DNA of 64,000 bases from an uncultured Pseudomonadales bacterium. Lineage in GTDB: Bacteria; Patescibacteriota; Microgenomatia; UBA1400; PJMF01. Location of the stretch: positions 18,700 through 82,699 of the forward strand of contig CAYOQI010000002.1 of NCBI GenBank assembly GCA_964406075.1. The letters are read 5' to 3'. The translations under genes were made by a program, and so were the position numbers. The notes beneath the pieces are model-generated. The model saw nothing but the letters and a program-made list of their open reading frames with translations, was not told the DNA's origin and did no database searches. The stretch's first letter is position 1. Every line of letters begins with the position of its first letter. Below, one piece after another: positions 5,614-39,683 of the stretch.

Positions 5614-5620
5614 ATACCCT

Positions 5621-6748: not shown

Positions 6749-6814
6749 AGAACTCCATGTAAAAAAGTATTAGGAATGAGGAGTATTGTACCTTGATCAA
6801 GTCGGCTGGGCAAA

Positions 6815-8275
6815 TTACCTTCGAAACAAGTGTGCCAGTTGATTTAAGCTTATTGAAATCTGCGTTGGTCGCCCATGCGGACACGTCAAAGACTCTGTTC
6901 CTGCGGCTAACAAATCTTTTACCAACTTCTGCATTTGAGCTTGATTTAAAGTTTGTCCAGCTCGAATAGCTTGATGACAAGCCAATACAGCTTTTTCTGC
7001 ATCGATATCTGGATGAAACGAGTGAAAATACTCATCATCATCAAAATCTGCTCTCGTCTCTTCATCAATATGAGATCGGAGTTTTTGTGCCACTTTTTCG
7101 TCTTTGAGTAAACGGTTGTACCACAGCTTCTCGTCTGCAGCATGTTGATCAATCAGTAAAAATCCGTGATTGGTTGGTACGAGTAAATACAGATTATGAA
7201 TCTGAGTGATTTCACCGGTAACTTCGGTAGCAGTTGTTTCTCGAACTCCGACATCAGGAAAAATGTGTTGTCCAACATATCTCAACTCATTGGTAGGGGT
7301 TTCTTGAAAGGCTTCGCTTATTGTCGTTTGGAGATAAGAAAAAATTTCTTGTTCGTGCAAAAACTTCACTTTCTTTTTCTGAGGATGAAGATTGATATCA
7401 ACCAATTCGGCGGGTATCTGAAGGCTGATATGAAATTGAGGAAAAAGCCCTCGATGTGAAAATGTTTTTAATCCTGAAGCAATACTTGGGAAAATAATTT
7501 GAGGATCCACAATTCGGTGATTGATAAAACAAAACATGTGCTTTCGGTGATTCACGAAATATTGAGGAGTACTAATCCAACCACTGATTTCGGTATATGG
7601 GTATGTAGAATTTAAATTTTTTCCGTGATCATTTCGCATTTTCCATGTTTGATATAAACGATCCGCATAGGTCTCGTTCGAAAAGCTCGTCCAAATAATT
7701 TTTCCTTGATGGGTAAGTTGAAACGCAATCGCCGGAAATTCCAAACTATATCCTTCAATCAGTTGCAAAATATCTCGAACTTCTTTTCTCGGTTGAATGG
7801 TTTTTTTTCTAACCGGCATATTTCCGAATAAATCAGACACCATCACTGTTGTTCCTTTTTGATGACCTTTAGGCAGAATTGGTTGCACTTTTCCACGGAT
7901 ACTTTGAATCTCATTTCCAACTTTTTCCTTTGCAGTTCGACTTAACACAGTAACTTCAGCCACAGATGAAATTGCGAATAAAGCTTCACCTCGAAAACCT
8001 AAAGTATGAATATGAAGCAAATCATCCGCCTCACTGAGTTTGCTCGTCGCATATCGCTCAAAAACTAGCCCCAGATCTTCAGCATTCATTCCTTGACCGT
8101 TATCAATCACCTTGATGAGATCTAATCCCGCGCCATCGAGCTGAATTTCAATCTGAGTTGCTCCTGAATCCAAAGCATTTTCCAATAATTCCTTGACTAC
8201 GGAATATGGTCGATCAATCACTTCACCAGCAGCAATCTGTCGGATCAAATGGTGGGGTAATTTTTTAATCGGCAT
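6815..8275 (-). CDS. mutL: DNA mismatch repair protein MutL, short endonuclease type
   Basis: A GHKL ATPase N-terminus (IAAGEVIDRPYSVVKELLENALDSGAT) and a C-terminal DQHAADEKLWY endonuclease motif. It starts 4 nt after the mutS stop. Confidence 0.95.
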   Translation of the reverse strand: MPIKKLPHHLIRQIAAGEVIDRPYSVVKELLENALDSGATQIEIQLDGAGLDLIKVIDNGQGMNAEDLGLVFERYATSKLSEADDLLHIHTLGFRGEALFAISSVAEVTVLSRTAKEKVGNEIQSIRGKVQPILPKGHQKGTTVMVSDLFGNMPVRKKTIQPRKEVRDILQLIEGYSLEFPAIAFQLTHQGKIIWTSFSNETYADRLYQTWKMRNDHGKNLNSTYPYTEISGWISTPQYFVNHRKHMFCFINHRIVDPQIIFPSIASGLKTFSHRGLFPQFHISLQIPAELVDINLHPQKKKVKFLHEQEIFSYLQTTISEAFQETPTNELRYVGQHIFPDVGVRETTATEVTGEITQIHNLYLLVPTNHGFLLIDQHAADEKLWYNRLLKDEKVAQKLRSHIDEETRADFDDDEYFHSFHPDIDAEKAVLACHQAIRAGQTLNQAQMQKLVKDLLAAGTESLTCPHGRPTQISISLNQLAHLFRR

Positions 8276-8279
8276 ATTC

Positions 8280-10991: not shown

Positions 10992-11038
10992 AGCGTATCA
11001 GGAAGCAGAGATAAGGTAAAGATAAATGAGTAAAAATA

Positions 11039-11067
11039 AAAGACGCGGAGTTTCCTCCGCGTCTTTA
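11039..11067 (-). terminator. Rho-independent terminator after the GlsB/YeaQ-like gene
   Basis: AAGACGCGGAG / CTCCGCGTCTT stem with a TTTC loop. On the minus strand it is followed by TTTTATTTTT. Confidence 0.75.
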
Positions 11068-11095
11068 CCAAGTTTGGCTCTTTTTTCATTCAGGT

Positions 11096-11347
11096 TTATG
11101 AACGAGCGAGTTGACGTCCCATCCAAATGAGTAAGATTGCACCAATGGTGGAAACAATCAAACTATATAAATTGAGACCGGTAACACCGCTCTCACCAAG
11201 GAGATTCATCAAGAAGCCTCCTCCAATTGCACCTACAATTCCAAGGAGTACATCTGTAACAAAACCTTGTTGTGAATTAGTTTTCATAACGATTGAAGCA
11301 ATCCATCCCGCTAAGAAACCAAGGATGATCCAAGCTAAAATTCCCAT
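11096..11347 (-). CDS. GlsB/YeaQ/YmgE family (transglycosylase-associated) membrane protein
   Basis: MGILAWIILGFLAGWIASIVM...GIVGAIGGGFLMNLLG, 83 aa. Confidence 0.85.
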   Translation of the reverse strand: MGILAWIILGFLAGWIASIVMKTNSQQGFVTDVLLGIVGAIGGGFLMNLLGESGVTGLNLYSLIVSTIGAILLIWMGRQLARS

Positions 11348-11455
11348 GGTATCCCCTTTCTGTTGAGTTAAGTATTAATATGTGAAGTATGACCTGAGTG
11401 AGAGTGAATAAAACGAAGGATATGTAAGAAGTACGTAAACGTTGAAGTATAATGA

Positions 11456-11674
11456 ATGAGATATATGAATAACTCACTTAATCCAGCCGACAAACCAATT
11501 GACCTGGAGCATGATATAAAAAATCATTTAACAGTCATTCTGTCTTATGCCAACTTACTTGAAATGTGGAAAAAAAGTCCCGCACAAGATCCGGAAAAAT
11601 TTGAAAAATATATAGGAATCATTAAACAACGAGTGGAAACACTAACTGCTTTAAGTGAACAAATCCCTGATTAA
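11456..11674 (+). CDS. Stand-alone HisKA/DHp-like mini-protein (72 aa)
   Basis: An H-box-like segment LEHDIKNHLTVILSYANLLEM is followed by a second helix, with no sensor or ATPase domain. A TATAAT box at 11447-11452 directly precedes the two candidate ATGs (11456, 11465). Confidence 0.55.
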   Translation: MRYMNNSLNPADKPIDLEHDIKNHLTVILSYANLLEMWKKSPAQDPEKFEKYIGIIKQRVETLTALSEQIPD

Positions 11675-11695
11675 ATTGTGGTGAATCTTCACCAA

Positions 11696-12373
11696 TTACT
11701 CTGTTTTTAAAACATATCCAAATCCTCGAATGGAATGAATAAGTTTCGCTTGAGCGTTGGCTTCCAATTTTTTTCGCAGATATCCAATATACACATCAAC
11801 AACTCTTGACTCCACATCGGGACTATATGACCACACATTGCTGAGAATCATCTCACGAGTGATGACTCGTCCCTGATTGAGAAGTAAGTAGTGAAGCAAA
11901 GTGTACTCCGTATGAGTCAGAGGGATTTTCTTACCTGCTCGACTCACTTCAAACGTTTGAGTGTTCATCTCTAAATCACCGATACTTAATACAGCATTAT
12001 TTTCTGGAGAACGAAGACGAGTTTGAACACGAGCAATTAATTCTTCCGCATGAAATGGTTTTGTGATGTAGTCATCAGCCCCATTCTGCAATCCTGCTAC
12101 TATGTCTTCCGTTTTATTTTTTGCCGTCAACATAATAATTGGAATGTGGGGGTACTTACTTTTTATATGTTGGCAGACCGTTTCCCCATCTATATCAGGA
12201 AGAGTCAGATCAAGAACAACTAAGCTTGGACGAATCTCATCGACCAACTTCAACGCTTTGCTTCCTTGATGTGCGGCATGCACTGTATAACGCTGAGAAG
12301 TTAATACTTCTTGTATATAGGTCGAGAGATCTTTATCATCTTCGACTATTAAGATTGTTGGAAATACACTCAT
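11696..12373 (-). CDS. OmpR/PhoB-family response regulator
   Basis: A receiver domain (ILIVEDDKDL...VVLDLTLPDIDG...LTAK) plus a winged-helix C-terminus (LTHTEYTLLHYLLLNQGRVITREMIL...VDVYIGYLRKKL). Confidence 0.92.
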   Translation of the reverse strand: MSVFPTILIVEDDKDLSTYIQEVLTSQRYTVHAAHQGSKALKLVDEIRPSLVVLDLTLPDIDGETVCQHIKSKYPHIPIIMLTAKNKTEDIVAGLQNGADDYITKPFHAEELIARVQTRLRSPENNAVLSIGDLEMNTQTFEVSRAGKKIPLTHTEYTLLHYLLLNQGRVITREMILSNVWSYSPDVESRVVDVYIGYLRKKLEANAQAKLIHSIRGFGYVLKTE

Positions 12374-12605
12374 AGATACCTCAATTCATTTTTTTTACTA
12401 TACCACCTTACAAATAAAATCCTATAGTTTTTTCCTGATTCTGACTCTTGTTTTACCTTTTTCTTACAAAACTTCGTAAAATCACTGCAAACATCTGGAT
12501 TCACTCTTCTTTCCTTCTTCTCACACAACTCCGAATAGTTCTTGATAACTACCAACTACTATCTAAACAATTAATATATGGTCTATCCCACCAAAGAAAG
12601 GAAGC

Positions 12606-12929
12606 ATGCCTACAACAAATGCAAAATCATCCCACAATCAAACAGTAATGGCTGGAATAACAGGGGCAGCCATCGGAGCAGCAGTCGCAACAACAGCAGC
12701 CATTTTGAGCAATGATGAAAAAAGACAGCAAATGAAAAGTGCTGTAAAAGCGGTAACAAATAAATTAAATGAACTTGCTGACAAAGCTCAACCAGTTATT
12801 CAAAACATGAAAGATCAAACGCAAGACGCCGCGAAGAAAGTTGCTAAACCAGTAAAAAAGAACCTTCCTGAAATAAAAGAAAAAGCCGAAAAAGCAAAAC
12901 AAGAAGTCAAAAAGAACACGAAAGTGTAA
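12606..12929 (+). CDS. YtxH-like Lys-rich protein
   Basis: A Gly/Ala-rich hydrophobic N-segment (MAGITGAAIGAAVATTAAIL) is followed by a Lys/Gln-rich helical tail. An AAAGGAAG RBS is present. Confidence 0.55.
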   Translation: MPTTNAKSSHNQTVMAGITGAAIGAAVATTAAILSNDEKRQQMKSAVKAVTNKLNELADKAQPVIQNMKDQTQDAAKKVAKPVKKNLPEIKEKAEKAKQEVKKNTKV

Positions 12930-13066
12930 CTTAATTGAAGAATCGAAAAAAAACGAGTAAGAAAACTGTAAGAATTCGTGACAAAACTTCATCTTCACTA
13001 GACAATGTAAAGTGCGGTTGATCAATATACAGACAAAATTTCTTTTATACGAAGTTTTCGCTACAG

Positions 13067-13097
13067 ATGCCCCGCTTTTTTCGGGGCATTTGTGTTG
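13067..13097 (+). terminator. Rho-independent terminator or attenuator just upstream of the kinase gene
   Basis: ATGCCCCG(13067-13074)/CGGGGCAT(13082-13089) followed by TTTGTGTT. It ends only about 10 nt before the ATG at 13105. Confidence 0.65.
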
Positions 13098-13104
13098 AAG
13101 CATT

Positions 13105-15504
13105 ATGCAGTTTGATACCACAGACCATCTAGAAAGTTTCTTCCTCCTCTCCCCTGTAGGGTTTGCTGTTGTTGATGAGAAATTTCGATTTCTTTGGGTA
13201 AACAACGCCTTCGCAGAAATGAATGCCCAACAGATCTCAGCGCATGAAGGGAAATCTGTCGAAGAAATTTTAGGTAAAACGGTATGGCAAACATTGAAAC
13301 CCTTTTACCAAAAAGCGTATAAAGGTGAAACATTCAGAGACATTTCCATTAGTAGTAAAGTACTTAAAAAAACTCAAAAATCGCGACATTTTCTCGTTAC
13401 CCTTTATCCCTTAAAAGAAAAAAATACCATCTCCAAAGTCGGTTGCTTAATTCAAGATGTGACTGAACAGAAACGCTCGGAAGAAGATCTCCATTCAATC
13501 AAAGACCGACTAGAATTTGCCCAAGAATCAGCAGCAATTGGTAGCTTTGAGTGGGATTTTCAAACTGGAAACATTTGGTGGTCTCCTGAAGAAGCCAAAC
13601 TACTTGGTTATCCTGAGGAAACATCCCAATCTCACATTTCTGAGTTGGAAAAAATTATTCATCCGGATGATGTTGATCAAGTAATGAATCAGATGAATAC
13701 AATTAAAAAAAACCTTTCATATTTTGAATCTGAATTTAGGATCATTCGTCCTGACAAAGCCATTCGGTGGATTAAAGGCAAAGCAAAGGTGTATCGAAAT
13801 ACTAAAAATGAAATTGTCAAAATCATTGGAGTAAATTACGACATTACGAATAGAAAGAGAAATGAGGAAATACTTCAATTCAAAGCGGAGATGAGTCAAA
13901 TTCTTTCTCGCTCGCTTGACTACGATACGATTGTTAACTCACTTTCAAAAATTGCTGTGAAGTACGTCGCCGATTGGTGTGCAATTGATATACTTTCTCC
14001 TCAAAATACATTAGAACTAGTCGCAGTCGCACACAAAGATCCAAAAAAGGTGAAGTGGGCAAAAAAATTACGAGTCGAATTTCCACCTGATCTCACTGAA
14101 CCACATGGTGTCGCTCAAGTTATTCGAACTGGAATTCCTGAATTTTATCCTGAAATCACGAAGGAAGTGATACTTGCAGCGGCCAAAAGCCAGCGTGAAC
14201 TCGATATCATTGAGAAAGTCGGTTTTACTTCCGTCATCATTGTGCCACTGATTATAAAAGGAAAACCAATTGGTGCAATTTCTTTGATAACAGCTGAATC
14301 AAAACGAAGATATGACAACTCAGATTTTGAGATGGCCAAAGAGTTGTCTTATCATGCATCGTTTGCCATTGAAAATGTCACTCTGTACAACGAAGTCAAA
14401 AGAGAACAAGGAAGATTAGAAAATCTTCTTAAAAATGTTCCCGGTGTAGTGTGGGAGGCGTATGGTGTTCCAGATCATTCAGAGCAGGAAATCAATTTTG
14501 TGAGTGAATATGTGGAACACATGCTCGGTTACACCGTCAATGAGTGGCTATCTACTCCAAATTTCTGGCTCCACATTGTTCATCCTGATGATAGAAAACG
14601 TGCAGGTGATGAATCAGTCGCAATTTTTAACAGCGGTGAAAGAGGTGTCAGTCGGTTTAGATGGATCAAAAAAGACGGCAAAGCATTGTGGATAGAGTCA
14701 CATTCATACGTCATTACGAATAGTAATGGAGAGCCAATTGGAATGCGTGGCGTCAGCATGGATATTTCTGATCGAGTAGAAATCGAAAGAAGAAAAGATG
14801 AGTTTATTTCAATTGCCAGTCATGAATTGAAAACACCAGTCACAAGTATCAAAGTTTTTACCCAAGTACTTCAGTCCATGTATGAAAAAGGCAAATACGA
14901 CCAAACTGGGAAGTACTTGCAAAAAATGGACAACCAAATACAAAAACTTACCAATCTAATTGCAGACTTATTAAATGTTTCAAAAATTCAAGCTGGGAAA
15001 ATTGAATTCAGAAAAGATTGGTTTGATTTAACTCACCTTATCAAAGATACCGTAGAGACTTTACAAGCGATCACCGGTCAAAAGATTAAATTTCAACAAA
15101 AAGAGTCATTAAAAGTTTGGGGTGACGAGGATCGAATTGGACAGGTCTTGGTAAATCTTATTTCAAATGCAATTAAGTATTCACCCGATGAAAGCACCGT
15201 GGTAATTAGCACCGAAAAAAATGGCTCACAAACTATCGTCCATATTCAAGACTTTGGCATGGGAATTGCCTCAGAACATCAGGATAAAATATTTGATCGG
15301 TTTTACAGAGTATTCGACGCGACAGATCGAACGTTTCCTGGATTAGGTATGGGACTATATATTAGCTATTACATTATTTCTCATCATGATGGAAAAATTT
15401 GGGTGAAAAGCGAAGTAGGAGAGGGCTCAGTCTTTTCCTTTAGCCTTCCAAACTCACCTGATAAAACAAGTAAAATGAGAAAAAGAATGAAGCGAATAAC
15501 ATAA
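13105..15504 (+). CDS. Cytoplasmic multi-sensor histidine kinase (PAS-PAS-GAF-PAS-HisKA-HATPase)
   Basis: There is no TM segment. Repeated PAS/PAC-like blocks are present (IRWIKGKAKVY.., FRWIKKDGKALWIE). The H-box is FISIASHELKTPVTSI, and the N/G boxes are LVNLISNAIKYSP and GLGMGLYIS. Confidence 0.92.
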   Translation: MQFDTTDHLESFFLLSPVGFAVVDEKFRFLWVNNAFAEMNAQQISAHEGKSVEEILGKTVWQTLKPFYQKAYKGETFRDISISSKVLKKTQKSRHFLVTLYPLKEKNTISKVGCLIQDVTEQKRSEEDLHSIKDRLEFAQESAAIGSFEWDFQTGNIWWSPEEAKLLGYPEETSQSHISELEKIIHPDDVDQVMNQMNTIKKNLSYFESEFRIIRPDKAIRWIKGKAKVYRNTKNEIVKIIGVNYDITNRKRNEEILQFKAEMSQILSRSLDYDTIVNSLSKIAVKYVADWCAIDILSPQNTLELVAVAHKDPKKVKWAKKLRVEFPPDLTEPHGVAQVIRTGIPEFYPEITKEVILAAAKSQRELDIIEKVGFTSVIIVPLIIKGKPIGAISLITAESKRRYDNSDFEMAKELSYHASFAIENVTLYNEVKREQGRLENLLKNVPGVVWEAYGVPDHSEQEINFVSEYVEHMLGYTVNEWLSTPNFWLHIVHPDDRKRAGDESVAIFNSGERGVSRFRWIKKDGKALWIESHSYVITNSNGEPIGMRGVSMDISDRVEIERRKDEFISIASHELKTPVTSIKVFTQVLQSMYEKGKYDQTGKYLQKMDNQIQKLTNLIADLLNVSKIQAGKIEFRKDWFDLTHLIKDTVETLQAITGQKIKFQQKESLKVWGDEDRIGQVLVNLISNAIKYSPDESTVVISTEKNGSQTIVHIQDFGMGIASEHQDKIFDRFYRVFDATDRTFPGLGMGLYISYYIISHHDGKIWVKSEVGEGSVFSFSLPNSPDKTSKMRKRMKRIT

Positions 15505-29613: not shown

Positions 29614-30687
29614 TTATATAACTTTCAGCGTCCCGGTATACATTCCCATTGAGCACGCAAAAGTATACTCACCTTTTTTTTCAGGTGTAAAACTAAATGT
29701 TTTCTGATCAATCGGGCCAAGCTGGGCTTTGATATCAAAGGCCTTCATCACAAATGAAGTTGCACAACTGTACACATTGTTCGTATGCAAAGTTAACTCC
29801 ACCGGCACTCCAGCTTTTACTTCAATATTTCTCGGCGAGTAGCCACTATTTTGGATTTCAATTGTTACCTTTTGTTTTCCATCTTCAGTTTTAACTAAAG
29901 AATTTTTTTCCGCAAATCTTTGATTCGAAAAGAAATAGGTAATTGGTTGAGTCATTTTTTGAAAAGTAACAGGAGCATCTAACACGACTAAAATTCCATT
30001 CAAACTACTCATACCCAAAAACAGCAATGAAATCGCTGCGATTCGTAAAAATGAAGTTCTAAATCGATCTGACAATTGAGCCGTTGCCACACCTACCACT
30101 GTAAATATTGGTGATGTTCCTAAAACAAATACGCCCATAATCAACGCACCAAGAACTGGACTCGCCGAACTAATCGCTAATACTTCCATTGATTGAGTGA
30201 CACCACATGGCACAAAAACAGTGAATAATCCAAGCAAAGCTGGAGCAAACAATGAATCATCTTTCCCAATCGATCGGAGTCTTTTTTGAATAAACTTCGG
30301 AGGTTGAAATACAACAAACCGGAAAATCGGATGCAGTTCTAATAAATTTGCCGCAGCAGCTAACATAAAAAAGGCTGCAATTCCTTGAAAAAGTAATGTC
30401 ACAGTTAAACTCAGTTGAAGTTTTGATCCTAACCAACCTAACAAAAAACCTAGAATGACATGAGAGATGAGTTTGGCTATTAGAAAGCTGGCGACCGGTA
30501 ACCAATCATTCTTATCAATATGTAAAGCATGTTGACGAATTTGTTTCTCACTTGAATTATCAAGAAACTTTTTCTTATGGTTTGAAATGACACTCGTCAA
30601 CAAGCCACCTTGCATGGCAACACAAGTGAGTCCACCCGTAGTCAAGCCAGTGATAAATATTGCCCACAAATTCATGTCTGCCTCCAA
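29614..30687 (-). CDS. Polytopic membrane protein with a C-terminal cupredoxin-like domain (copper-operon accessory)
   Basis: About 6 TM helices, then a soluble beta domain (KVTIEIQNSGYSPRNIEVKAGVPVELTLHTNN...CSMGMYTGTLKVI). It sits between copA and copZ. Confidence 0.6.
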   Translation of the reverse strand: MEADMNLWAIFITGLTTGGLTCVAMQGGLLTSVISNHKKKFLDNSSEKQIRQHALHIDKNDWLPVASFLIAKLISHVILGFLLGWLGSKLQLSLTVTLLFQGIAAFFMLAAAANLLELHPIFRFVVFQPPKFIQKRLRSIGKDDSLFAPALLGLFTVFVPCGVTQSMEVLAISSASPVLGALIMGVFVLGTSPIFTVVGVATAQLSDRFRTSFLRIAAISLLFLGMSSLNGILVVLDAPVTFQKMTQPITYFFSNQRFAEKNSLVKTEDGKQKVTIEIQNSGYSPRNIEVKAGVPVELTLHTNNVYSCATSFVMKAFDIKAQLGPIDQKTFSFTPEKKGEYTFACSMGMYTGTLKVI

Positions 30688-30796
30688 ATTATATTTAAAT
30701 GTAAAATCCTACTGTTTTTTAACTTTTTCTTGCTGTTATTTCTAACGATGGCCAGATTTTTTTCTACTACTTAGTGTAGTTTATATTTGTGTGAAA

Positions 30797-33139
30797 TTAA
30801 AGAGTTATCTTTTTTAAGCGTAAGGCATTCCCAACAACCGATACACTTGAAAAAGCCATCGCCATGCCTGCCCAAATTGGGCTTAACAAAATTCCCACAA
30901 ATGGATAAAACACACCAGCTGCTATTGGAATTCCAATCACATTATAGAAAAATGCCCAAAACAGGTTTTGTTTCACAATTTTCATTGTGACCTTTGAAAG
31001 TTTGACAGCTTGAACTACTTTTTCTATATCACCGTGTAGTAAGGTCACATGAGCTGTAGAAATTGCAACATCAGTTCCAGTACTCATGGCAATTCCAACA
31101 TCAGCGGTGGCTAATGCTGGGGCATCATTGACACCATCCCCAACCATCGCAACGTTTTTTCCGCTCTTTTTTAATTCTTGAATGAAATGAGCTTTCTGAT
31201 CAGGCAGAACTCCGGCGATTACCTTGTGAATACCTACTTGCTTGGCAATAAACTCCGCTGTTTTTTGATCATCACCGGACAACATGACCACTTCTACTCC
31301 CATATCATGGAGTGCTTGAACGGTTTGCGGGGCATTGGATTTAATCGTATCGGCCACAAACACCATTCCCAAGAGTTGCTTCTTCTTTGCTAAAAAGATT
31401 GGCGTTTTCCCTACTTTAGTATACTGAATTACTTCTTCATCATTAATTGTAATACCTAACTCAGTCATAAAGTTTTTATTCCCTGCATATAACCATTCAT
31501 CTTGAATTTTTCCTTGGACACCTTTTCCTTCAACAATTGAGAAATCTTCAATCTTTCGTAACCGAATCTTTTCAACTTCAGCTCTTTCAACAATTGCTGA
31601 TGCTAATGGATGCTCAGAATTTTTCTCTAAACTCGCCAGTATGCTTAAAACTTTTTCGGCTGTTTCACCTTTAGATGGAAAAATATCAGTCACGGTTGGT
31701 TTTCCTTGAGTCAGCGTTCCTGTTTTATCCATCACAATTGTATTTACGCTGTGAAGTTTTTCCAAACTTTCTGCATTTTTTATTAAAATTCCTAGTGATG
31801 CTCCTCGTCCAACCGCAGTAATTAAAGCCGTCGGAGTAGCTAGTCCTAGAGCACATGGACAGGCGATAACTAAAACACCAACAAATGCTTTGATCGCTAA
31901 GGGTAAAGCAATACCAAAATTGTCTGTCAAAACTCCATATGTAAGCCAACTCAACAAAGTGAAGGCCGCAATCACAATGACAATGGGAACAAAAACTGCT
32001 GAGACTTGATCAGCAAGTCGTTCAATTGGGGCCTTTGACATTTGAGCATCACTCACCATTTGTACAATTTGTGAAAGTAAGGTTTCTTGTCCAATTTTTT
32101 TCGCTTCAACAATCAGCACACCTTGTTTATTCATCGTGGCTCCAATAACACTGTCACCAACTTTTTTCTCAATCGGTAATGACTCACCCGTAATCATAGA
32201 TTCATCGACAGATGAACTTCCTTCAACGACTTTTCCATCTACAGGAATCTTTGTGCCTGGTTTTATAATCACGAGATCACCAACTTGAACTTCATCAATT
32301 GAAATTTCCATTTCTTTTCCACTTCGCCGTACTAAAGCAGTCTTTGCTTGTAATCCAATCAGTTTTTCTAATGCTTCACCTGTTTTCTTTTTTGATCGAG
32401 CTTCTAAATATTTCCCAAAAAGAATAAATCCAATCACAACAATAGTGACATCAAAATAGGTATCACGTGGAAATCCCCAACGCTCAAAGGTAATTGGGAA
32501 AAAGACAATCAAGGACGAGTAAATAAATGCAGTTAAGGTTCCAATTCCCACTAAACTATCCATATTCGCAACTCGCAACTTTACAAATCGAATCACTGCA
32601 TCAATAAATTGTTTCCCGGAAGTAATTAAAGTGAAGAGCGATAAGAAAAACAAGATTAATGGCCAAAATCTCATTGGTAATGGAAGCATTGGCACCAAGG
32701 GAAATGTTTGGGAAGCTATTTCCCACATCATGACAAAAAATACAAAAACTGCTAAAGGAAAAATTAACTCAACTTTTTTTCTTTCTTCATCAATGTCATT
32801 TTCACTTGGAGGGGCTGCATGAGCACTATGATCTTCCATTTGATGACCATGGTCATGAGAAATTTTTCCCTGAGATGGCATACTCACTTCGCTTTGAGCA
32901 TGCTGTGATTCACCATCTTTCATTAAGTGATATCCATACTGTTCTAGTTCTGAATTCATTTGAGAAATATCCACTTTGTCTGGATTGTAGGTAATTGCAG
33001 CTTTTTCACTCGCAACATTAACGGTGCAGCTTTCAACACCTTGTATTTTTTTTAATGTACGTTGAATGATTGAGCCACAGCTCGCACAGTGCATGCCGTG
33101 AACTTTATAGTGTTGTGTTGTTGTGGAATCTTTTTGCAT
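30797..33139 (-). CDS. copA: Copper-translocating P1B-type ATPase
   Basis: N-terminal HMA motif GMHCASCG, a His-rich stretch, the TM CPC motif ([11 protein letters not shown]), DKTGTLT, and [10 protein letters not shown]. Confidence 0.95.
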
Positions 33140-33205
33140 TGAAAGGCTGTAACTCCTGAATTAATGTCTACTAATACTTAACTTATTTAATATTAAAAAC
33201 ACTGA

Positions 33206-33778
33206 CTACACTCCATACCATTCTTTTCTCCAAGCCTTGAGTTGTTCAAGATTTGGGGAAAGAATTGATAATACTTCATCTGCAATATTAAGTACCTCGG
33301 TGCGTTGGGATTTTGTCTTGACTTCTTGCGCCATAGCAATTGCTTGTTCATGATGAGTCATCATTGAATTGAGAAATCGTAAATCAAATTTTTCATCTGG
33401 CTCACCCAGATATACTTTCTGAAACTGTTTAATCTCACGGGTATTATCAAACCACTCTTTTTTATATTGGTACAACTGTTCAATCCCTTTGCTATCCAAC
33501 TCAATAATTGTTTCTCCTAAAGACCGGATTTCAAGTCGTTTTGAATGAAGTAACGCTTGTTCTGACATATCTATCGCACTTAAGTGATGTGCAATTAATC
33601 CATCTACATATCGTAAATCTAAATATCGATCAGCATTCCCCAACTCCATCATTTCCTCTTTTTCTTCATCTTTCATAACAACATACTCAGGTGTAAATGC
33701 AAACCCAACCATAGTTCCGATCAAAAAAGCTATGATCAATAAAGAAATTGTTAATTCAGGAGAAAAGTTTTTTTTCAT
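33206..33778 (-). CDS. DUF305 family protein (membrane-anchored)
   Basis: Two repeats with conserved HH motifs (LIAHHLSAIDMSEQAL, MMTHHEQAIAMAQEV). Confidence 0.8.
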   Translation of the reverse strand: MKKNFSPELTISLLIIAFLIGTMVGFAFTPEYVVMKDEEKEEMMELGNADRYLDLRYVDGLIAHHLSAIDMSEQALLHSKRLEIRSLGETIIELDSKGIEQLYQYKKEWFDNTREIKQFQKVYLGEPDEKFDLRFLNSMMTHHEQAIAMAQEVKTKSQRTEVLNIADEVLSILSPNLEQLKAWRKEWYGV

Positions 33779-33786
33779 ACTTACCT

Positions 33787-34056
33787 TTATTTAGTGTTAC
33801 TAAAGACTTTCATCACTTCTTCAATTGCTTTTTTTGACTGCCCTTTTTTGACATGATCCACAACACAGTGTGAGAGATGTTCTTCCAAAAGGACTTCATC
33901 AATTTTTTGAAGTGAACTTTTTATCGCTTTGGTTTGTGTTAAGACGTCAATGCAGTACACATCTTGTTCGACCATCTCGATCACTTTTTCTAGATGTCCT
34001 CGAACAATTTTGAGTCGATGAAGTGCATTGTCTTTCGTCGTTTTAGTATGAAACAT
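33787..34056 (-). CDS. csoR: CsoR/RcnR/FrmR-family metal-sensing repressor
   Basis: LHRLKIVRGHLEKVIEMVEQDVYCIDVLTQTKAIKSSL...HLSHCV carries the C-H-C ligand pattern. Confidence 0.88.
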   Translation of the reverse strand: MFHTKTTKDNALHRLKIVRGHLEKVIEMVEQDVYCIDVLTQTKAIKSSLQKIDEVLLEEHLSHCVVDHVKKGQSKKAIEEVMKVFSNTK

Positions 34057-34246: not shown

Positions 34247-34660
34247 CTAATACTGCATTGTCGATAGTGAAGGTATTTGAGGAGGGGAAACTTTATCCAA
34301 AATTCTTGGAGTTAAAATACTCGTTCCGACAATTAAAGCCACAAATGCCATAACCAGCACAGCTCCGGCAGCAATATCTCGTGCTCTTTTCGTCGCAACA
34401 TATGACAACTTTAATTCATCTCGAAGTAAATTTGCTAATTCTTCCACAGCAGTATTCACCATTTCAGCGGAAATAACTAACCCAATCAAGATAATCAATG
34501 TAAACCATTCAGTTCGCGAAATACCTGCCCAAACACTCAGTGGAATGACAATTGCTGTTGCAAGTAAATGGACTCGCATGTTTCGTTCCAAAGAACTACT
34601 GACGATACCTTCTCCGGCAAAGCCAAAACTTCTGACTACTTTTTTCCAAAAAATTATCAT
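34247..34660 (-). CDS. dgkA: Diacylglycerol/undecaprenol kinase (DgkA family)
   Basis: ERNMRVHLLATAIVI...ISAEMVNTAVEELANLL on three TM helices. Confidence 0.85.
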   Translation of the reverse strand: MIIFWKKVVRSFGFAGEGIVSSSLERNMRVHLLATAIVIPLSVWAGISRTEWFTLIILIGLVISAEMVNTAVEELANLLRDELKLSYVATKRARDIAAGAVLVMAFVALIVGTSILTPRILDKVSPPQIPSLSTMQY

Positions 34661-34673
34661 AACTTTCCCGTAT

Positions 34674-35132
34674 TTATTGAGCTGAAGTCAAGAGTACAGC
34701 CATCCAAGCATCTGCTTGTTGAAAAGCTGTTGCTTGATCATTAAAAAATCGATCAATTCGAAGTGATGGGGTAACAATTTTTCCACCGTGATCTGAAATA
34801 AATTTTTCCAGATGTTCGACTGCTCCACAAAAAATGTGATATGTTTTGTCACCTAATCCAAACACTGCAATTTTTGTTGGTGCTAGATCTAGTGAAGCAT
34901 TTCGATTCATGAAATCAGCAAAATCAGGATGAGGCTGGCCTTCTAAACCATCAGCATCCCAACTTGGTGATCCCAATAAAACAAGCTGATACTCTGAGAA
35001 AGAAGATGGCTGAGTCGAGCTTATTTCTTGCACCACTACTTCATGTCCTTGCGTTTGAGCAGCTGTTTGTAGATGTTGAGCAACTAAAAAAGTGGATCCT
35101 GAATTGGTTGCGTAGGTGATCAGAATTTTCAT
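34674..35132 (-). CDS. Flavodoxin
   Basis: MKILITYATNSGSTFLVAQHL FMN-binding loop, 152 aa. Confidence 0.85.
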   Translation of the reverse strand: MKILITYATNSGSTFLVAQHLQTAAQTQGHEVVVQEISSTQPSSFSEYQLVLLGSPSWDADGLEGQPHPDFADFMNRNASLDLAPTKIAVFGLGDKTYHIFCGAVEHLEKFISDHGGKIVTPSLRIDRFFNDQATAFQQADAWMAVLLTSAQ

Positions 35133-35250
35133 ATGAACTCCATTATAGAAATATATTTAAACCGAATACAACTCAAGAAATAACTGATGAGCTCCTTCCG
35201 ATTGTATCGCATTCCTGAATTTAGAAAATCCACAGTCCAGTTTGAGAAAT

Positions 35251-36816
35251 TTAAGCAACTGCTCGAAGTTGAAAGACACTTTGACCACTTACTGGATTTG
35301 TTGGACCCATTTGCCAAAGACTATCAATTTTGGTGGTGTTGCCTCTAGATAGAATCTGAAAGGAAGGAAGGAACGAAACTTCAGATTTAGTTTGATTCGA
35401 AATTTTAGGAGAGTGTGAGGTCTGGGAATAATTAATACGCTTATCCGAAATTGCTGATAGTGGCTGTCCACGTTTATAAGAACAATGAGTGCATCTATTC
35501 GAATTTGTAGACAGATGCTGACAATTTGGACAAACCTGACATGTATCTATCCCTAGACCAGGATGTAATCCTCCAAATCCATTGGCTCCGTTTTTTACTA
35601 AGCCACCTCCTGCAGATAATGCTCCACAGATTCCCCACCCACCCACTCGAGTGAAAATCGTCGGAATGACATTTGCAAGCGAACCCAGAAATGCGACTCT
35701 ATCACCAGTTTTAACTAAGACTTCATCAAATTTTTTCACCACTTCTTCACCAGGAACATTTTTATTGAGCAACAAAGGATTTGCCAGAGCTTCAAAAAAG
35801 ATCTTCAAATTCGTATCTTGTGTAATACTTGGGGCATGTGTAAATTCACGTTGGAAAATTTCTAAAATGGCATGTATGGATGAGTCAATTGATTTTGCTT
35901 GTTGGTCCTGGCGCTTCCGAGCTCGACGAATCCTTCGAGGAAGCAACCAATCTCCTGCTTGTACTCCTAACTTAACTAATAACTCCTCAGGCCCTAGATT
36001 ATTTTTGTCTTCGGACAACTGAATGATCCTCATCATTGTTGCTTCTTCATCAAATTGATCCAAATGAAACGTATCAACTTGGTCAATGTTTAATAATTTG
36101 TGAGCTTGTGCTCTCCAGCCTATGCGATGGTAATACCCTTGTGACTCCACTACATACTTCACCTCATCTGAATTTGATTGAGGAAAAGCGACTAACCGAT
36201 AGACATTAAAGTACGAACCTCCTCCCGCATGTGCTTCACTTCTCGGCATGGCCAATGCATACCAAGGGCTGGTAAATCCTTCTTGAAGATTTCCTTTTCT
36301 ATCAGAAATTTGAACGGATTCAGCTGATGTCGCCAATTTTTGAAGTAAAGGCAGAGATAACAAAGGATCTTGAGCTAAATGTTCATTGACTAATTTTTGA
36401 GTTTGCAAAAATTCTAATAAATAGCGTTGAACAAAAACTTCGGCGTACCGTGCTCCACTCTGCTCCCCATGCTTTCCTTTTCCCGCAGCGAACAGCCAAC
36501 CTTCTTTTGCTCTCTCCACAATATCTGGTTGAGAAGGATAATCAGGATCTAAAACTTGTATTCCACCTTCTTCTTTTTGCTCGACCTCGTACAAAAAACG
36601 CGGTGACAACGGCAAGATCACTTGTTCTTGGATGAGGGTGAGTAACTGTTTTCGTAAAAGTGGGACGAATTTTTCGATCGCTTTTTCTTTTCCAAGCAAG
36701 TCTACCGCTTTTTTGAAATCTTCCAGCAGATGTGACAAATTAAATACCTGAGGAATTTCAGATTCTTTTATTTCTTTTCCCTGAACAATGAAGGTCCGTT
36801 CTCGCTCTCTTCCCAT
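35251..36816 (-). CDS. Orphan 521-aa protein with an Arg-rich segment and a C-terminal Cys-rich zinc-ribbon-like motif
   Basis: Coding-like composition. It contains LLPRRIRRARKRQDQQ, a Gly-rich GGWGICGALSAGGGLVKNGANGFGG segment, and CQVCPNCQHLSTNSNRCTHC. No family recognised. Confidence 0.6.
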   Translation of the reverse strand: MGRERERTFIVQGKEIKESEIPQVFNLSHLLEDFKKAVDLLGKEKAIEKFVPLLRKQLLTLIQEQVILPLSPRFLYEVEQKEEGGIQVLDPDYPSQPDIVERAKEGWLFAAGKGKHGEQSGARYAEVFVQRYLLEFLQTQKLVNEHLAQDPLLSLPLLQKLATSAESVQISDRKGNLQEGFTSPWYALAMPRSEAHAGGGSYFNVYRLVAFPQSNSDEVKYVVESQGYYHRIGWRAQAHKLLNIDQVDTFHLDQFDEEATMMRIIQLSEDKNNLGPEELLVKLGVQAGDWLLPRRIRRARKRQDQQAKSIDSSIHAILEIFQREFTHAPSITQDTNLKIFFEALANPLLLNKNVPGEEVVKKFDEVLVKTGDRVAFLGSLANVIPTIFTRVGGWGICGALSAGGGLVKNGANGFGGLHPGLGIDTCQVCPNCQHLSTNSNRCTHCSYKRGQPLSAISDKRINYSQTSHSPKISNQTKSEVSFLPSFQILSRGNTTKIDSLWQMGPTNPVSGQSVFQLRAVA

Positions 36817-36825
36817 AAAAAAAGC

Positions 36826-37190
36826 TCTCTAGAGCCTGTTTGAGAAGTCCCTTTCAATTCGAAAGGCAGTCAGGTTCGAGAAAAAAAGTGTGCAGAACGA
36901 CGAAGTAGTAGCTCGGTCTACTTCAAGGAGTGATAAGCACTTTTTTACCGAATCCTGCTGACTTGCAGAAGAATGCGACTTTTCAAATAGGCTCTGTGGA
37001 GCATGCGGAGACGACAAAAGTCGACAAAAAAAATCCGATGCTCGTCGAAATTCCGGTGAACACCGGAACGCGTTTGAAGATCGGACTTTGCGCGATCCCG
37101 ACAAACTTTGTCGTGGATCGGCATCACCGTTGCGGCACAGTTCTGGATTTCTCACCTAAGTCAGGCGAGGCACCAGATTCCAGCAAACGC
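36826..37190. ncRNA. Unclassified highly structured RNA candidate; strand unresolved
   Basis: The region is richer in G+C than its flanks. The ORFs predicted here are Arg/Ser/Cys-rich and not protein-like. There are at least 10 nested helices, including an 18-bp long-range helix (36832-36849 / 36977-36994), a perfect 8-bp hairpin (37051-37068), and a second domain closed by 37070-37076 / 37184-37190. Confidence 0.65.
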
Positions 37191-37244
37191 TAAGTATTGT
37201 TTACTTGTAACAAAAAACTGAACACGACACAACCAACAACTTCT

Positions 37245-37493
37245 TTACATCATGGTCATCAGATAGGTCAGCACGAATACACCTGTAACAATCAAGAAAA
37301 TCATAATTAAGTTTCTAGCATTCGGATGTTGATCGTAGAACTCCACTTGTTCATTGTGAAGACGTGGTTTCGTCCAGTGAGAATGAGTTTTAGCTGGAGA
37401 TGAAGCTACTTTTCTTACAGCTTTTTTAGCTGAAACTTTTTTCTTTGGTGCTGCTTTTTTAGCAGAAGTCGTTCGGGCAGGTTTCTTTTTCAT
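37245..37493 (-). CDS. Lys/Ala-rich basic protein with a C-terminal TM anchor
   Basis: MKKKPARTTSAKKAAPKKKVSAKKAVRKV... followed by LIMIFLIVTGVFVLTYLM. Confidence 0.6.
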   Translation of the reverse strand: MKKKPARTTSAKKAAPKKKVSAKKAVRKVASSPAKTHSHWTKPRLHNEQVEFYDQHPNARNLIMIFLIVTGVFVLTYLMTMM

Positions 37494-37583: not shown

Positions 37584-37793
37584 TTACGAGTTATTTCTCG
37601 CTCCAAGCGGCTTGTGTGGAATAAGAGGGATTTTTGGTCTCTGTTTTTGTCTTTCAACTTCTAGTGCTGCAACAATCTCTAACGGAGACGGCGGAGCCTC
37701 GCGAGTAAATTCATAAATAACTACTAGTTCAGCATTATTAGGATCGTAATGACTTTCTAAAACTCTTTCACGTTGACCTGGAAGTGATGACAT
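37584..37793 (-). CDS. Hypothetical protein (69 aa)
   Basis: The ORF has an AAAGGAGGAG RBS immediately upstream of its ATG at 37793. Confidence 0.55.
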   Translation of the reverse strand: MSSLPGQRERVLESHYDPNNAELVVIYEFTREAPPSPLEIVAALEVERQKQRPKIPLIPHKPLGARNNS

Positions 37794-37836: not shown

Positions 37837-38208
37837 TCACCAAATTCCTTGATCTTTCATAAAACATTTTGTGGTCACTTGTAAACCAAGTTGCTTTGCT
37901 TTTTCCACAACTTCCAAAGATTCTGAACCTGGTTGCATCCAGATATTTTTTATACCTAAGTTATGACATTCATCGACAATTTGAGATGTAACGCTATGAG
38001 GAACAACGGTAATTACAAGTTCAGGAAGAGTAGGAAGATCTGACAAGGAGGAGAAAATTGGTTGATTTAAAACTGATTCAGCTTTGGGATTGATGCCAAT
38101 TACTTGATAACCATTGTCCAATAAATCAGCAAAAATTCTATGACCATACTTTTCAGGTTTGGCGGAAACACCTACCAAAGCTATTTTCGTTTGACGATTA
38201 AACATCAA
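37837..38208 (-). CDS. CoA-binding domain protein (YccU-like)
   Basis: KIALVGVSAKPEKYGHRIFADLLDNGYQVIGINPK. Confidence 0.8.
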   Translation of the reverse strand: MMFNRQTKIALVGVSAKPEKYGHRIFADLLDNGYQVIGINPKAESVLNQPIFSSLSDLPTLPELVITVVPHSVTSQIVDECHNLGIKNIWMQPGSESLEVVEKAKQLGLQVTTKCFMKDQGIW

Positions 38209-38248
38209 ATTAAAAGGTGAACACGTAATAATAAACGCCTAATTTTCT

Positions 38249-38545
38249 CTATTCTCTTCTCTCAATCGTAATAGTGCACTCTGTAACAAGAGCAGCCAAA
38301 GCACCAAGTGCTGCCCAAACGGGCGCCAGGACCAAGCCAGCAACACCAATACTCAGTGGCAGTACGATTAATGACTTTCCATTTTTATCTTTAATCGTGA
38401 TGCGTCGAATATTTCCTTCTTTGATGAGGTTTTTTACTTTAGCGATTAAATCTTCCCCATTTACTTTGAAACTTTCTTGCTTTGGAGATTCAGTTTTTTT
38501 GGTCTTGGGTTCTTCAGCTTGCGCTGTGGTTTTTTTGGTTGGCAT
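38249..38545 (-). CDS. DUF4342-like protein
   Basis: FKVNGEDLIAKVKNLIKEGNIRRITIKDKNGKSLIVLPLSIGVAG with a hydrophobic tail. Confidence 0.6.
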   Translation of the reverse strand: MPTKKTTAQAEEPKTKKTESPKQESFKVNGEDLIAKVKNLIKEGNIRRITIKDKNGKSLIVLPLSIGVAGLVLAPVWAALGALAALVTECTITIERRE

Positions 38546-38583
38546 ATTTTTTTAAAATTAAAAAGTAAGGTAACAATGCGAAT

Positions 38584-38790
38584 TTAATCCTTTTTTGCTC
38601 TCTGCTTTAAAAGATCGTTTATTGCCTGAGAAGTTTCAGAATCAATTCTTCTGTCGACAGATCCATCTAGATGAATAATGCGCTTAGCTAATAGCTCGGT
38701 GTAGAGAGCCTCTGAAAGCACTTCTGGAGGATGAGCACGTAATAGATCATTAATGGCTCTGTTTTGTTCTTCTGTTAGATTTCTTGACAT
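38584..38790 (-). CDS. Hypothetical 68-aa protein with an internal AINDLL repeat
   Basis: RAINDLLRA and QAINDLLKQ flank a central segment. Confidence 0.5.
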   Translation of the reverse strand: MSRNLTEEQNRAINDLLRAHPPEVLSEALYTELLAKRIIHLDGSVDRRIDSETSQAINDLLKQRAKKD

Positions 38791-38810
38791 ATCCCTATTA
38801 TACTCCTTTT

Positions 38811-39683
38811 TTACAGCAACTCACTCGTGTGCTCTTCCGCCTTTTGTTCAAAAGGCAGGATATACATATCTGTTCGATACTCATTTGTTCCGACAAATTC
38901 ACCCTCATTTTTCAATACTCTCTCAAGTGGTCGACATGCAAAACACCCATCCTCTCCTGCTGAACATTTGAATAGTTGAAGCTGACGAGCCAGCTTGACT
39001 TGTTTGGCCAGTTTGAGCACTTGTTCATGTGCAGTATCTAAATCCGGTAATGCTTTTTCGACTAACTCATCACTCCATTCGAGATACCAGTAACTGGCTT
39101 TCTCTACTTTACGATGCTGACAATGATGAACGAGTAAATGGTAAATCGGAAGCTGCATGGAATTTCCATCTTCTTCCGCTTTGCTTGTTTTGAAATCAAT
39201 AATATGGACACTATCGTTTGAAGGCAGGTATTCTAGCCAATCAATTTTTCCACATAAAATAATATTGTCGGCGTCTGATAACCAAAAGTAGGGTAAAGAT
39301 TGTTTGATTTTGACAGCCATGTTCACCAACGGGCCAGGAGTACGCATGATTCGTCGCAACATCTCCTCACCTCTTTTTTTATACTTTTCTTCTTGTTCAA
39401 TTGAAGAAAATCCACCTTTTTTACCACTGACCTTTTTCCACGCATTTTCAAATTTAACCAGCAAAGATTCTGAAAATCTGTTTTGAGTAGGCAAAACCGA
39501 CAGAGACTCTACCACCTCATGCACCGCTTGACCCAACGCTAACGGTGGACTCATGACTTGAATCTTATGTTTTGTGGCTGGATCTTTGTATACATTTTTT
39601 AAATAGTATGCACGCGGACACTTCACAAAATCGCTCAATGACGTATGTGATACCCAGACAGCTGAAAATTTATCTTGAACCAT
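38811..39683 (-). CDS. PD-(D/E)xK nuclease with a Cas4/AddB-like Fe-S cysteine pattern
   Basis: KCPRAYYL (N-terminal Cys), GKIDWLEY...HIIDFKTSK (D...DxK), QLPIYHLL (QxxxY), and C-terminal CSAGEDGCFAC. Confidence 0.7.
   Translation of the reverse strand: MVQDKFSAVWVSHTSLSDFVKCPRAYYLKNVYKDPATKHKIQVMSPPLALGQAVHEVVESLSVLPTQNRFSESLLVKFENAWKKVSGKKGGFSSIEQEEKYKKRGEEMLRRIMRTPGPLVNMAVKIKQSLPYFWLSDADNIILCGKIDWLEYLPSNDSVHIIDFKTSKAEEDGNSMQLPIYHLLVHHCQHRKVEKASYWYLEWSDELVEKALPDLDTAHEQVLKLAKQVKLARQLQLFKCSAGEDGCFACRPLERVLKNEGEFVGTNEYRTDMYILPFEQKAEEHTSELL

Follow-up and report, generated by a model that had tools for sequence, protein, structure and literature searches.

What controls an orphan gene that stands behind a long structured RNA in a patescibacterium, and what might its product do? 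The question is raised by a gene for a 521-amino-acid (aa) protein in a window of 64,000 nucleotides (nt), by which we mean the whole stretch of DNA analysed, positions 18,700 to 82,699 of contig CAYOQI010000002.1 in assembly GCA_964406075.1 of an uncultured bacterium (GTDB lineage Patescibacteriota; Microgenomatia; UBA1400; PJMF01). Patescibacteria form a large, mostly uncultured share of bacterial diversity and live off other cells, and to our knowledge their ways of sensing and acquiring cofactors are largely unknown. An original prediction, made by reading the sequence, had raised the idea that the protein and the RNA are partners. Our analysis gives good support to the view that the RNA is a cobalamin-type riboswitch in cis control of the orphan gene, and that this pairing of RNA and gene is conserved across an order of ultrasmall Patescibacteria, and the protein belongs to an undescribed family. 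The explanation that we prefer as a whole, with slightly more confidence than doubt, is that of an OFF-type cobalamin riboswitch governing a starvation-induced corrinoid-handling protein. The two elements concerned are:

35251..36816, minus strand: gene of the 521-aa orphan protein ('FAM'), controlled by the riboswitch (open frame, ATG start, homologues, AlphaFold model)
37031..37211, minus strand: cobalamin-riboswitch aptamer and P13-like hairpin (Rfam, lineage model R1, covariation)

The open reading frame (ORF) at 35251-36816 on the minus strand is open throughout and begins with ATG, as first described, and homologues with 33-58% identity to its product indicate that the gene is real. The upstream RNA, whose strand had been left conditional, does lie on the minus strand and makes a long structured leader for the ORF; its length is about 390 nt (about 37211 to 36817) rather than the roughly 370 nt initially given. 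A leader of about 390-400 nt folds far better than its shuffled versions (z = -7.4, with 0 of 100 shuffles as good). A scan for tRNA and tmRNA gave 0 matches.

At the gathering threshold, Rfam likewise gave 0 matches in the whole window. A permissive scan brought up the AdoCbl family (RF01482) at 37026-37205 on the minus strand, with 26 bits and an E-value of 0.019 for a gathering score of 50. By itself this match is weak, and the window copy appears from its sequence to be a divergent relative of the cobalamin riboswitch that falls below the curated threshold. The lineage model R1, a covariance model of the riboswitch, scores it at 81.6 bits (E 3e-21; G000:C2:55730-55910), and this is the only R1 match in the genome. 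Among 32 genomes scanned at the loci of family members, 21 have a match to an Rfam family of the cobalamin clan. In all 21 the RNA is on the strand of the gene and directly upstream, either 0-125 nt from the open frame or overlapping it. Four loci pass the curated cut-offs (Cobalamin at 61.2, 37.5 and 34.4 vs 31.5 bits; AdoCbl-II at 40.4 vs 36.5), and a homologous gene in a named Patescibacteria metagenome-assembled genome has the same Rfam match in the same place, at 33.4 bits. The 11 loci without an Rfam match include one in which the RNA is seen by eye (G157), two cut by contig ends and eight from a single clade, f17. As a side observation, a 108-aa ORF that lies over the riboswitch (36829-37155, minus strand) is almost certainly spurious. 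Similarly, the N-terminal extension of a database homologue of 591 aa (P0002) is the same riboswitch read in frame, and looks like a start-codon miscall.

We assessed covariation on an unfitted MAFFT alignment of 21 copies, from which the unpublished genome G147 was omitted, using a structure of 22 pairs drawn from the Rfam alignment and the sequences. This structure is 81.7% paired, compared with 31-46% when slid along the alignment, and its covariation score is 0.409 vs at most 0.186 for the controls, with 0 of 500 shuffles as high. Sixteen of its pairs change on both sides. In the hairpin that follows GGAA, compensatory pairs of many types occur, and in the helix closing on the AGUC(C/A)G box G-C and U-A are exchanged together; we label the AGUCCGA segment that closes this helix B12-box-like. 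RNAalifold recovers the first hairpin and the P13-like hairpin unaided.

The part of the leader between the aptamer and the start codon has the layout of an expression platform:

37034..37049, minus strand: P13-like hairpin UUCGACGAGCAUCGGA (48 of 59 loci have the motif CGAGCAUCG or one close to it)
36990..37009, minus strand: UCCGCAUGCUCC...AGAGCC, by sequence the complement of the P13-like hairpin's 3' half, and also the 5' arm of the terminal hairpin (sequences; long-range helix in the minimum free energy (MFE) fold)
36838..36989, minus strand: structured insert of about 150 nt inside the terminal hairpin, in this copy only (leader comparison, fold)
36817..36837, minus strand: 3' arm of the terminator or sequestering hairpin (AGAGAG) with U7 abutting the ATG (terminator scan; same design in relatives)

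The small hairpin that follows the aptamer reads UUCGA-CGAGCA-UCGGA. Its 3' half, GAGCAUCGG, is complementary to the downstream CCGAUGCUC, and the downstream UCCGnAUGCUC segment overlaps the 5' arm (GCUCCUC) of the terminal hairpin. In relatives, the 3' arm of that hairpin is GAGGAG, followed by 3-7 U and the start codon; a strict version of this pattern, CUCCUC-loop-GAGGAG and at least three U beside the start, is present in 26 of 59 loci. In the window copy, the MFE fold closes the insert by the long-range helix GCUC...AGAGCC / GGCUCU...GAGC. The T7 run before the ATG (36817-36823) and the palindrome at 36824-36835 had been pointed out from the start, together with a terminator-like element abutting the start codon, and a terminator scan indeed calls a 6-pair hairpin at 36837-36822 followed by the T-run. 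The reported lack of a Shine-Dalgarno sequence holds for the window copy, with its degenerate AGAGAG, but not for the relatives, where the 3' arm of that hairpin contains GAGGAG.

When known cobalamin riboswitches bind their ligand, a kissing loop with a hairpin of this kind becomes fixed, and on that basis we infer a similar switching logic here. Bound adenosylcobalamin, the presumed ligand, would hold the small hairpin as a kissing-loop partner, whereupon the terminal hairpin would form, serving as an intrinsic terminator and at the same time hiding the ribosome-binding site. Without ligand, the terminal hairpin would give way to the alternative pairing, and expression of the gene would follow. 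By analogy, the leader would be a riboswitch of the OFF type.

How far does the pair of RNA and protein extend? Close relatives of the window protein are few, i.e. five in a word-indexed search and ten representatives in an exhaustive one, and the only one whose source is named comes from Patescibacteria. The protein profile A3 has 20 rows and was widened with distant members; one row comes from G147, which is also one counted locus in several tallies, and no claim depends on it alone. The profile detects one copy each in 31 of the 286 genomes of the window's GTDB order, and 5 of 401 in a sample of the class. Among the matches listed, a word-indexed search with A3 contained the five known close relatives, and a search of sequencing runs contained five DNA holders and no RNA holder. 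A scan of metagenome contigs with the protein profile gave 272 pattern matches, none of which was confirmed. Residues E64, R131, E135, Q138, L142, P191, E324 and C397 are invariant across A3, and H196 and the cysteines of a zinc ribbon described below are nearly so.

For the RNA, R1 matches 111 of the 140 genomes of the window's family, nearly always in single copy, and 94 of 151 genomes in a sample of the order, where it is present in 12 families and was not found in seven (0 of 25 genomes in family f13). At riboswitch loci negative for A3, the first gene often codes for a 600-730-aa protein that we called c4. Alignment of the c4 and A3 profiles by hhalign (95% probability, E 4e-8, 354 columns; unrelated controls at 1.1% or less) identifies c4 at the sequence level as a remote homologue of the window protein. 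The c4 profile matches 38 of the 140 family genomes. Altogether, 55 family genomes have a member of this superfamily, and the riboswitch lies directly upstream on the same strand in 53 of them, with two undecidable at contig breaks. Outside the family, the four f15 genomes out of four and one class-level match also have the riboswitch upstream. In about half of the riboswitch-positive family genomes the first gene is recognised by neither profile; at the loci examined, such first genes code either for proteins of 206-283 aa without detectable relation to the superfamily or for shorter proteins that are only partly alignable, and for two small types, c19 and c33, no relation was detected. The superfamily is fast-diverging, was seen only in Patescibacteria in these searches and is the usual target of the single cobalamin riboswitch that these genomes have.

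The expected co-occurrence of RNA and protein is thus borne out by the 53 of 55 family genomes with the pair and fails in the f17 clade. Homologues never found beside the RNA, which the original prediction regarded as fatal to a link between the two, characterise that one clade, with eight of eight examined genomes. One further f17 genome (G275, locus L168) carries a riboswitch, but it precedes a protein of 283 aa, placed by BLAST with the small c33 type, and not the large family member; therefore, the clade is not uniformly riboswitch-free. Two other observations concern copy number and length. Pairs of R1 matches about 1.1-1.3 kb apart on the same strand (G006:C5:47721-49043 and G033:C18:17434-18887) could represent a tandem or duplicated riboswitch-gene unit, and the family member of G120 (L070) contains a run of N, which makes its apparent length of 431 aa unreliable.

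We then related the riboswitch to the use of B12. The window genome (1.22 Mb, 89.6% complete) codes for a ribonucleotide reductase (RNR) of the adenosylcobalamin type, with a match to TIGR02505 at 243 bits and an RNR-II insertion domain, and for the adenosyltransferase CobA. A PduO-type transferase was not found in it; at 89.6% completeness, neither was a FecCD/BtuC permease or a PF02310 domain, ECF-CbrT and BtuM not having been searched. In the family, 106 genomes have both riboswitch and reductase, 5 the riboswitch without the reductase, 15 the reductase without the riboswitch and 14 neither. The riboswitch is therefore present in 106 of 121 reductase-positive vs 5 of 19 reductase-negative genomes, an association that this table overstates because related genomes are not independent. 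Whole genera (g36 and g46) are devoid of both. Of the 14 genomes lacking riboswitch and reductase, 13 keep VirB4, a type IV secretion system (T4SS) protein, at 63-82% identity. At eight loci examined from genomes without both, no family member was detected in first position of the conserved T4SS operon, which in G102 and G211 starts directly with the gene of a giant protein.

The riboswitch and its first gene occur in three settings. Of 41 riboswitch loci examined, 20 have the first gene at the head of a chromosomal T4SS cluster, in the order M23-peptidase giant protein, single-pass membrane protein, PrgI/VirB3-like protein, unknown protein of 230-500 aa, VirB4 and dnaA. This is the cluster described beside dnaA for the chromosomal T4SS of Patescibacteria by Quinonero-Coronel et al. 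2025 (PMC12102498). In the second setting, found in families f16, f7, f2 and f11, the pair is just upstream of nrdR and the reductase genes. The run in G253, verified with Pfam, comprises nrdR, reductase genes, maf, cobA and a virD4-like gene; nrdR and/or reductase genes were also Pfam-verified downstream in G001 and G035, and are indicated by ORF size alone in four more loci. In the third setting, that of the window's clade, the pair is relocated away from the T4SS and is followed by two other genes:

34674..35132, minus strand: flavodoxin gene, 118 nt downstream of the 521-aa ORF (Pfam Flavodoxin_1, E 1.4e-20; NCBIfam flavodoxin families)
34247..34660, minus strand: diacylglycerol-kinase-family gene (Pfam; beside the flavodoxin gene here and in G156 and G104)

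The arrangement varies, in that G157 keeps the kinase-family gene alone, the flavodoxin gene being missing, and in G104 other genes intervene, one of them on the opposite strand. The window's flavodoxin gene has its own TATAAT 9 nt before the ATG and may be on a separate transcript.

From these data we tentatively propose, with a confidence that stops somewhat short of even, that the protein is made under B12 starvation and handles corrinoid. It would capture, hold or pass on corrinoid for the adenosylcobalamin-dependent reductase, and would work alongside the CobA adenosyltransferase and perhaps flavodoxin. We favour this role because the gene is the single riboswitch target, because within the family the loss of the riboswitch goes with that of the reductase, no family member being detected in those genomes, and because cobA, reductase and flavodoxin genes adjoin and no known importer was found.

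Several observations weigh against this proposal. The window copy scores 26 bits for a gathering score of 50, and cobalamin binding is predicted only. Some of the riboswitches examined precede proteins of 206-283 aa that have no detectable relation to the superfamily. In f17, eight of eight examined genomes have the protein and the reductase with the riboswitch nowhere in the genome. In f13, 30 of 31 genomes match the reductase model and 0 of 25 sampled have the riboswitch; 11 of these 30 matches, counted by TIGR02505, also fit the generic RNR barrel PF02867 and may be another RNR type, the window's own reductase getting only E 3e-4 with PF02867. Within the family itself, 15 genomes have the reductase and no riboswitch match. 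Superfamily members share less than 20% identity vs 73-82% for VirB4 in the same genomes, which is extreme for a housekeeping cofactor handler, and the position of the gene at the head of the T4SS cluster in nearly half of the loci hints at another role. Finally, in 12 of 19 T4SS-linked gaps a few bases (about 5-12 nt) separate a TATAAT from the start that follows it, and palindromes before nrdR resemble NrdR boxes. Because the gaps carry such elements of their own, the neighbours are probably separate transcripts and represent weaker functional evidence, and the riboswitch probably controls mainly the first gene.

Some features of these neighbourhoods deserve mention for themselves. TATAAT boxes so close to the starts, both in T4SS-linked loci and in the window (35133-35250), suggest very short or absent mRNA leaders in this lineage. 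In f16 and f7, nrdR is followed by three tandem paralogous genes of reductase large subunits (675, 636 and 762 aa), then by maf, cobA and the virD4-like gene (L163/G253, 3543-14456; L160, L161, L162 and L164), and the NrdR-box-like palindromes upstream of nrdR are paired. Most T4SS-linked loci have, just upstream of the riboswitch, a divergently transcribed gene for a protein of 900-1300 aa that belongs to no Pfam family and is very poorly conserved from genus to genus (L051, 8023-11274); beyond it is a VirB6-like multi-pass membrane protein, with a match to a Mycoplasma integrative and conjugative element family.

The strongest competitor is that the protein is a T4SS accessory, acting as a substrate, as an adaptor of the VirD4-like coupling protein, or in assembly or gating. 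Its tail would be a docking or secretion signal, and B12 status would only time its synthesis. The first gene and the T4SS and dnaA genes run in the same direction at those 20 of 41 loci, and 7 of the 19 T4SS-linked gaps favour co-transcription, six with a gap of 8 nt or less or an overlap and one with 36 nt and no TATAAT. A VirD4-like gene belongs to the same cluster in f16, divergence far beyond that of VirB4 is what one expects of host-facing proteins, and the protein ends in a short C-terminal motif after a disordered linker. However, the T4SS operon of the window genome is on another contig (contig 6), without riboswitch or family member at its head, and the riboswitch has stayed with the 521-aa gene; the same separation is found in G156, G157, G104, G162 and G163. 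The TATAAT boxes in 12 of the 19 gaps argue in the same direction. In addition, the window protein and its relatives have no Pfam or NCBIfam match to T4SS components (VirB1/3/4/6/8, VirD4, relaxase), a search that divergent components could escape, although the neighbours do match (PrgI, M23, VirB4 and the VirB6-like protein), and the tail motif, [ST]-[VIL]-[SG]-x3-hydrophobic-hydrophobic, common to the family in alignments read by eye, fits no secretion signal known to us. We consider a T4SS accessory rather unlikely.

An extension of the same idea is more speculative still, and we regard it as improbable. B12 starvation would serve these epibionts as a cue for host exploitation, and the chromosomal T4SS, with the protein as its substrate or adaptor, would draw corrinoid or deoxynucleotide precursors from the host cell. 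Such a role would explain why the pair is at the T4SS head or beside the reductase, cobA and virD4 genes. It would also explain that no known B12 importer was found and that the protein evolves fast, like a host-facing factor. If true, deoxynucleotide precursors acquired through the T4SS would bypass the B12-dependent reductase.

The protein itself offers several features, including a predicted fold:

36112..36621, minus strand: alpha/beta domain with PAS-like strand order, residues 66-235 (predicted model)
35899..35946, minus strand: Arg-rich stretch LLPRRIRRARKRQDQQ, residues 291-306, at the start of helix 292-324 (sequence and model)
35545..35649, minus strand: conserved Gly/Cys-rich segment, residues 390-424, including C397 (invariant columns; low model confidence)
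35482..35541, minus strand: zinc-ribbon-like Cys cluster C426, C429, C432, C442, C445 (sequence; Pfam zinc-ribbon matches below cut-off)
35254..35454, minus strand: low-complexity disordered tail, residues 455-521 (predicted local distance difference test (pLDDT) about 27)

The Arg-rich and Gly-rich stretches and the Ser/Asn/Gln-rich tail from residue 455, predicted to be disordered, had all been read correctly at first sight. The Cys cluster is present as C426-x2-C429-x2-C432-x9-C442-x2-C445, with a spacer of 9 residues rather than the 10 initially counted, and the two CxxC knuckles of the ribbon are invariant in the alignment of relatives. The Arg-rich stretch is partly conserved (L292, I296, A299, R302 and Q306 in a five-sequence alignment, with A299 invariant in the wider one), and in the model it opens the long helix 292-324 within a helical bundle. 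As first stated, the protein fits no described family, with no Pfam, NCBIfam or PDB relative. The NCBIfam scan of the window protein gave no match, the Pfam matches are solely sub-threshold zinc ribbons and L32 (PF13248, PF13240 and L32p; 9.9-12.5 bits vs cut-offs of 21-27), and the protein profile run against PDB sequences finds L32/L37e zinc ribbons alone (E 0.007-0.03). The relatives scanned belong to no Pfam family either. The B12-binding domain PF02310 is not among the Pfam matches of the window protein to E = 1; its DxHxxG motif was not scanned separately. No signal peptide was seen by eye and a simple hydropathy scan gave no transmembrane-like segment, so that the protein is cytoplasmic-looking as judged from its sequence.

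The AlphaFold model of the full protein has a pLDDT of 71.7 and a predicted template modelling score (pTM) of 0.69. Residues 5-390 are folded, residues 391-428 have a pLDDT below 50, and the protein divides into a helical bundle, an inserted domain whose PAS-like matches are weak, the Gly/Cys segment, the zinc ribbon and the disordered tail. Predicted alone from 24 sequences, the inserted domain (residues 66-235) reaches a pLDDT of 87.8 and a pTM of 0.83, and its beta3-beta4 loop carries a conserved MPxSxVHxGGxS motif (residues 190-201). A Foldseek comparison of the AlphaFold model, which had been suggested as a check, gave nothing at E <= 0.001 against the PDB, for the full model or for the 66-235 domain, and a search of the ESM Atlas for look-alikes of residues 1-395 gave no usable match. 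The PAS-like assignment of the model is a lead only.

Could the protein be a ligand-sensing regulator? Its PAS-like pocket and bundle would then sense a small molecule, its ribbon would bind nucleic acid or a partner, and it would tune reductase or T4SS genes at low B12. PAS and LOV sensor domains are the top fold rows for residues 66-235, TetR-type ligand-binding bundles are those for the whole model, the zinc ribbon is conserved and the gene adjoins nrdR-controlled operons in several families. Nevertheless, Pfam detected no DNA-binding domain in the window protein or in eight relatives, and a zinc ribbon alone is no evidence of nucleic-acid binding, which makes such a regulator distinctly unlikely in our eyes.

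Other assignments were considered and rejected. A relationship with glycyl-radical enzymes or class III reductases was suggested by an RVGGW sequence that resembles the radical motif, with a zinc ribbon nearby; these elements, though, stand in the opposite order, the aromatic residue lacks conservation and NRDD gives no match. For a papain-like or caspase-like Cys-His peptidase, the conserved Cys is in a low-confidence loop and the fold gives no support. The tail motif is without the usual Gln of a C-terminal beta-clamp-binding motif. Finally, the original prediction had found no motifs of RNA-guided nucleases, and no RuvC or HNH family of Pfam is detected in the window protein (to E = 1) or in eight relatives (to E = 0.1); for enzymes of the IscB, TnpB or Cas12 type, the Cas12-type chains among the Foldseek rows are noise (E 0.2-0.4, template modelling scores of 0.07-0.08).

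Two alternatives concern the RNA. It might have the fold of a cobalamin riboswitch and bind another ligand or none, the gene being unrelated to B12. The window copy and most of its relatives are indeed under the Rfam cut-offs, the core reads GCCGCAACGG where the AdoCbl model has GCCACUG, and f13 and f17 have the reductase without the RNA. In contrast, the four orthologous copies that pass curated cut-offs, a presence that tracks the B12-dependent reductase in the family (106 of 121 vs 5 of 19) and the cobA and reductase genes that adjoin in other families argue for cobalamin, and we give this alternative very little credence. Least credible of all is the idea that the Arg-rich segment and zinc ribbon let the protein bind the upstream RNA, the two forming a ribonucleoprotein or an autoregulatory pair: RNA and gene do co-occur and a basic stretch and a ribbon are present, but a cis-acting cobalamin riboswitch with its own expression platform accounts for the RNA and for the co-occurrence without contact, in other genomes this riboswitch stands before small proteins of no detectable relation, f17 retains the protein without the RNA, and the basic stretch is only partly conserved and lies within a bundle helix.

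Farther from the pair, other genes of the window were noted. Downstream, what looks by eye like a copper-handling cluster (29614-34056, minus strand) codes for a P-type ATPase that has a heavy-metal-binding N-terminus (30797-33139), a DUF305-like protein, a small repressor similar to CsoR and a membrane protein whose C-terminus is cupredoxin-like. Upstream (37837-39683, minus strand), Pfam identifies a CoA-binding protein, a DUF4342 protein and a PD-(D/E)XK nuclease-family protein, and two small lysine-rich ORFs without family are at 37245-37493 and 37584-37793.

A single, order-wide cobalamin riboswitch points at one gene per genome, and hence at a nutritional signal. On the reasoning usually applied to riboswitch regulons, this makes the gene the best candidate for the B12 acquisition or handling step that is missing in organisms whose DNA synthesis needs adenosylcobalamin. 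The placement of the target family offers a testable link between vitamin status, DNA-precursor supply and a secretion machine, and the T4SS cluster that it heads lies by the replication origin. One passage of a review (PMC11665869) describes what the T4SS does in Saccharibacteria as completely unknown, and another suggests riboswitches as candidates for inducible expression in Patescibacteria; the cobalamin riboswitch of the window lineage would be a native genetic tool for these bacteria. We found no description of a link between a riboswitch, this protein and the T4SS in Patescibacteria in the searchable literature, i.e. outside subscription papers and supplements, and the main text of PMC12102498 contains 0 occurrences of 'riboswitch' or 'cobalamin'.

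Comparison with known systems places the locus as follows. In many relatives, the family member heads the run of M23 hydrolase, PrgI/VirB3-like protein, VirB4 and dnaA that PMC12102498 describes; in contrast, the window copy is not in a T4SS cluster. The rubredoxin-like zinc ribbons of bL32 and eL37 share the CxxC-x9-CxxC spacing with the window protein and are its sole sequence matches in Pfam and the PDB. However, these matches (E 0.007-0.2) fail every cut-off, and the window protein adds a fifth Cys (C426) and an invariant upstream one (C397). The domain of residues 66-235 is predicted as two strands, a helical segment and three long strands, an order resembling that of the PAS fold, and PAS, LOV, phytochrome-PAS or Cache domains make up most of its top 50 structural rows; it differs by a much longer helical insert and has no Pfam PAS match.

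For the RNA, the known systems are the cobalamin riboswitches (clan CL00101: Cobalamin RF00174, AdoCbl RF01482 and AdoCbl-II RF01689). The window RNA follows the Rfam AdoCbl model in the order of its elements, i.e. an outer helix, the GGAA junction, a hairpin, a second hairpin of three pairs and a helix that the AGUC(C/A)G(A/G) box closes; the hairpin downstream of the aptamer occupies the position of the kissing-loop partner, and the RNA likewise precedes a gene in an organism that needs B12. It departs from that model in its core, where GCCGCAACGG stands in place of GCCACUG, and from known members in the large insertions of its first and terminal hairpins. The known targets of cobalamin riboswitches are transporters, biosynthesis genes and B12-independent isozymes, whereas the genes regulated here code for orphan proteins.

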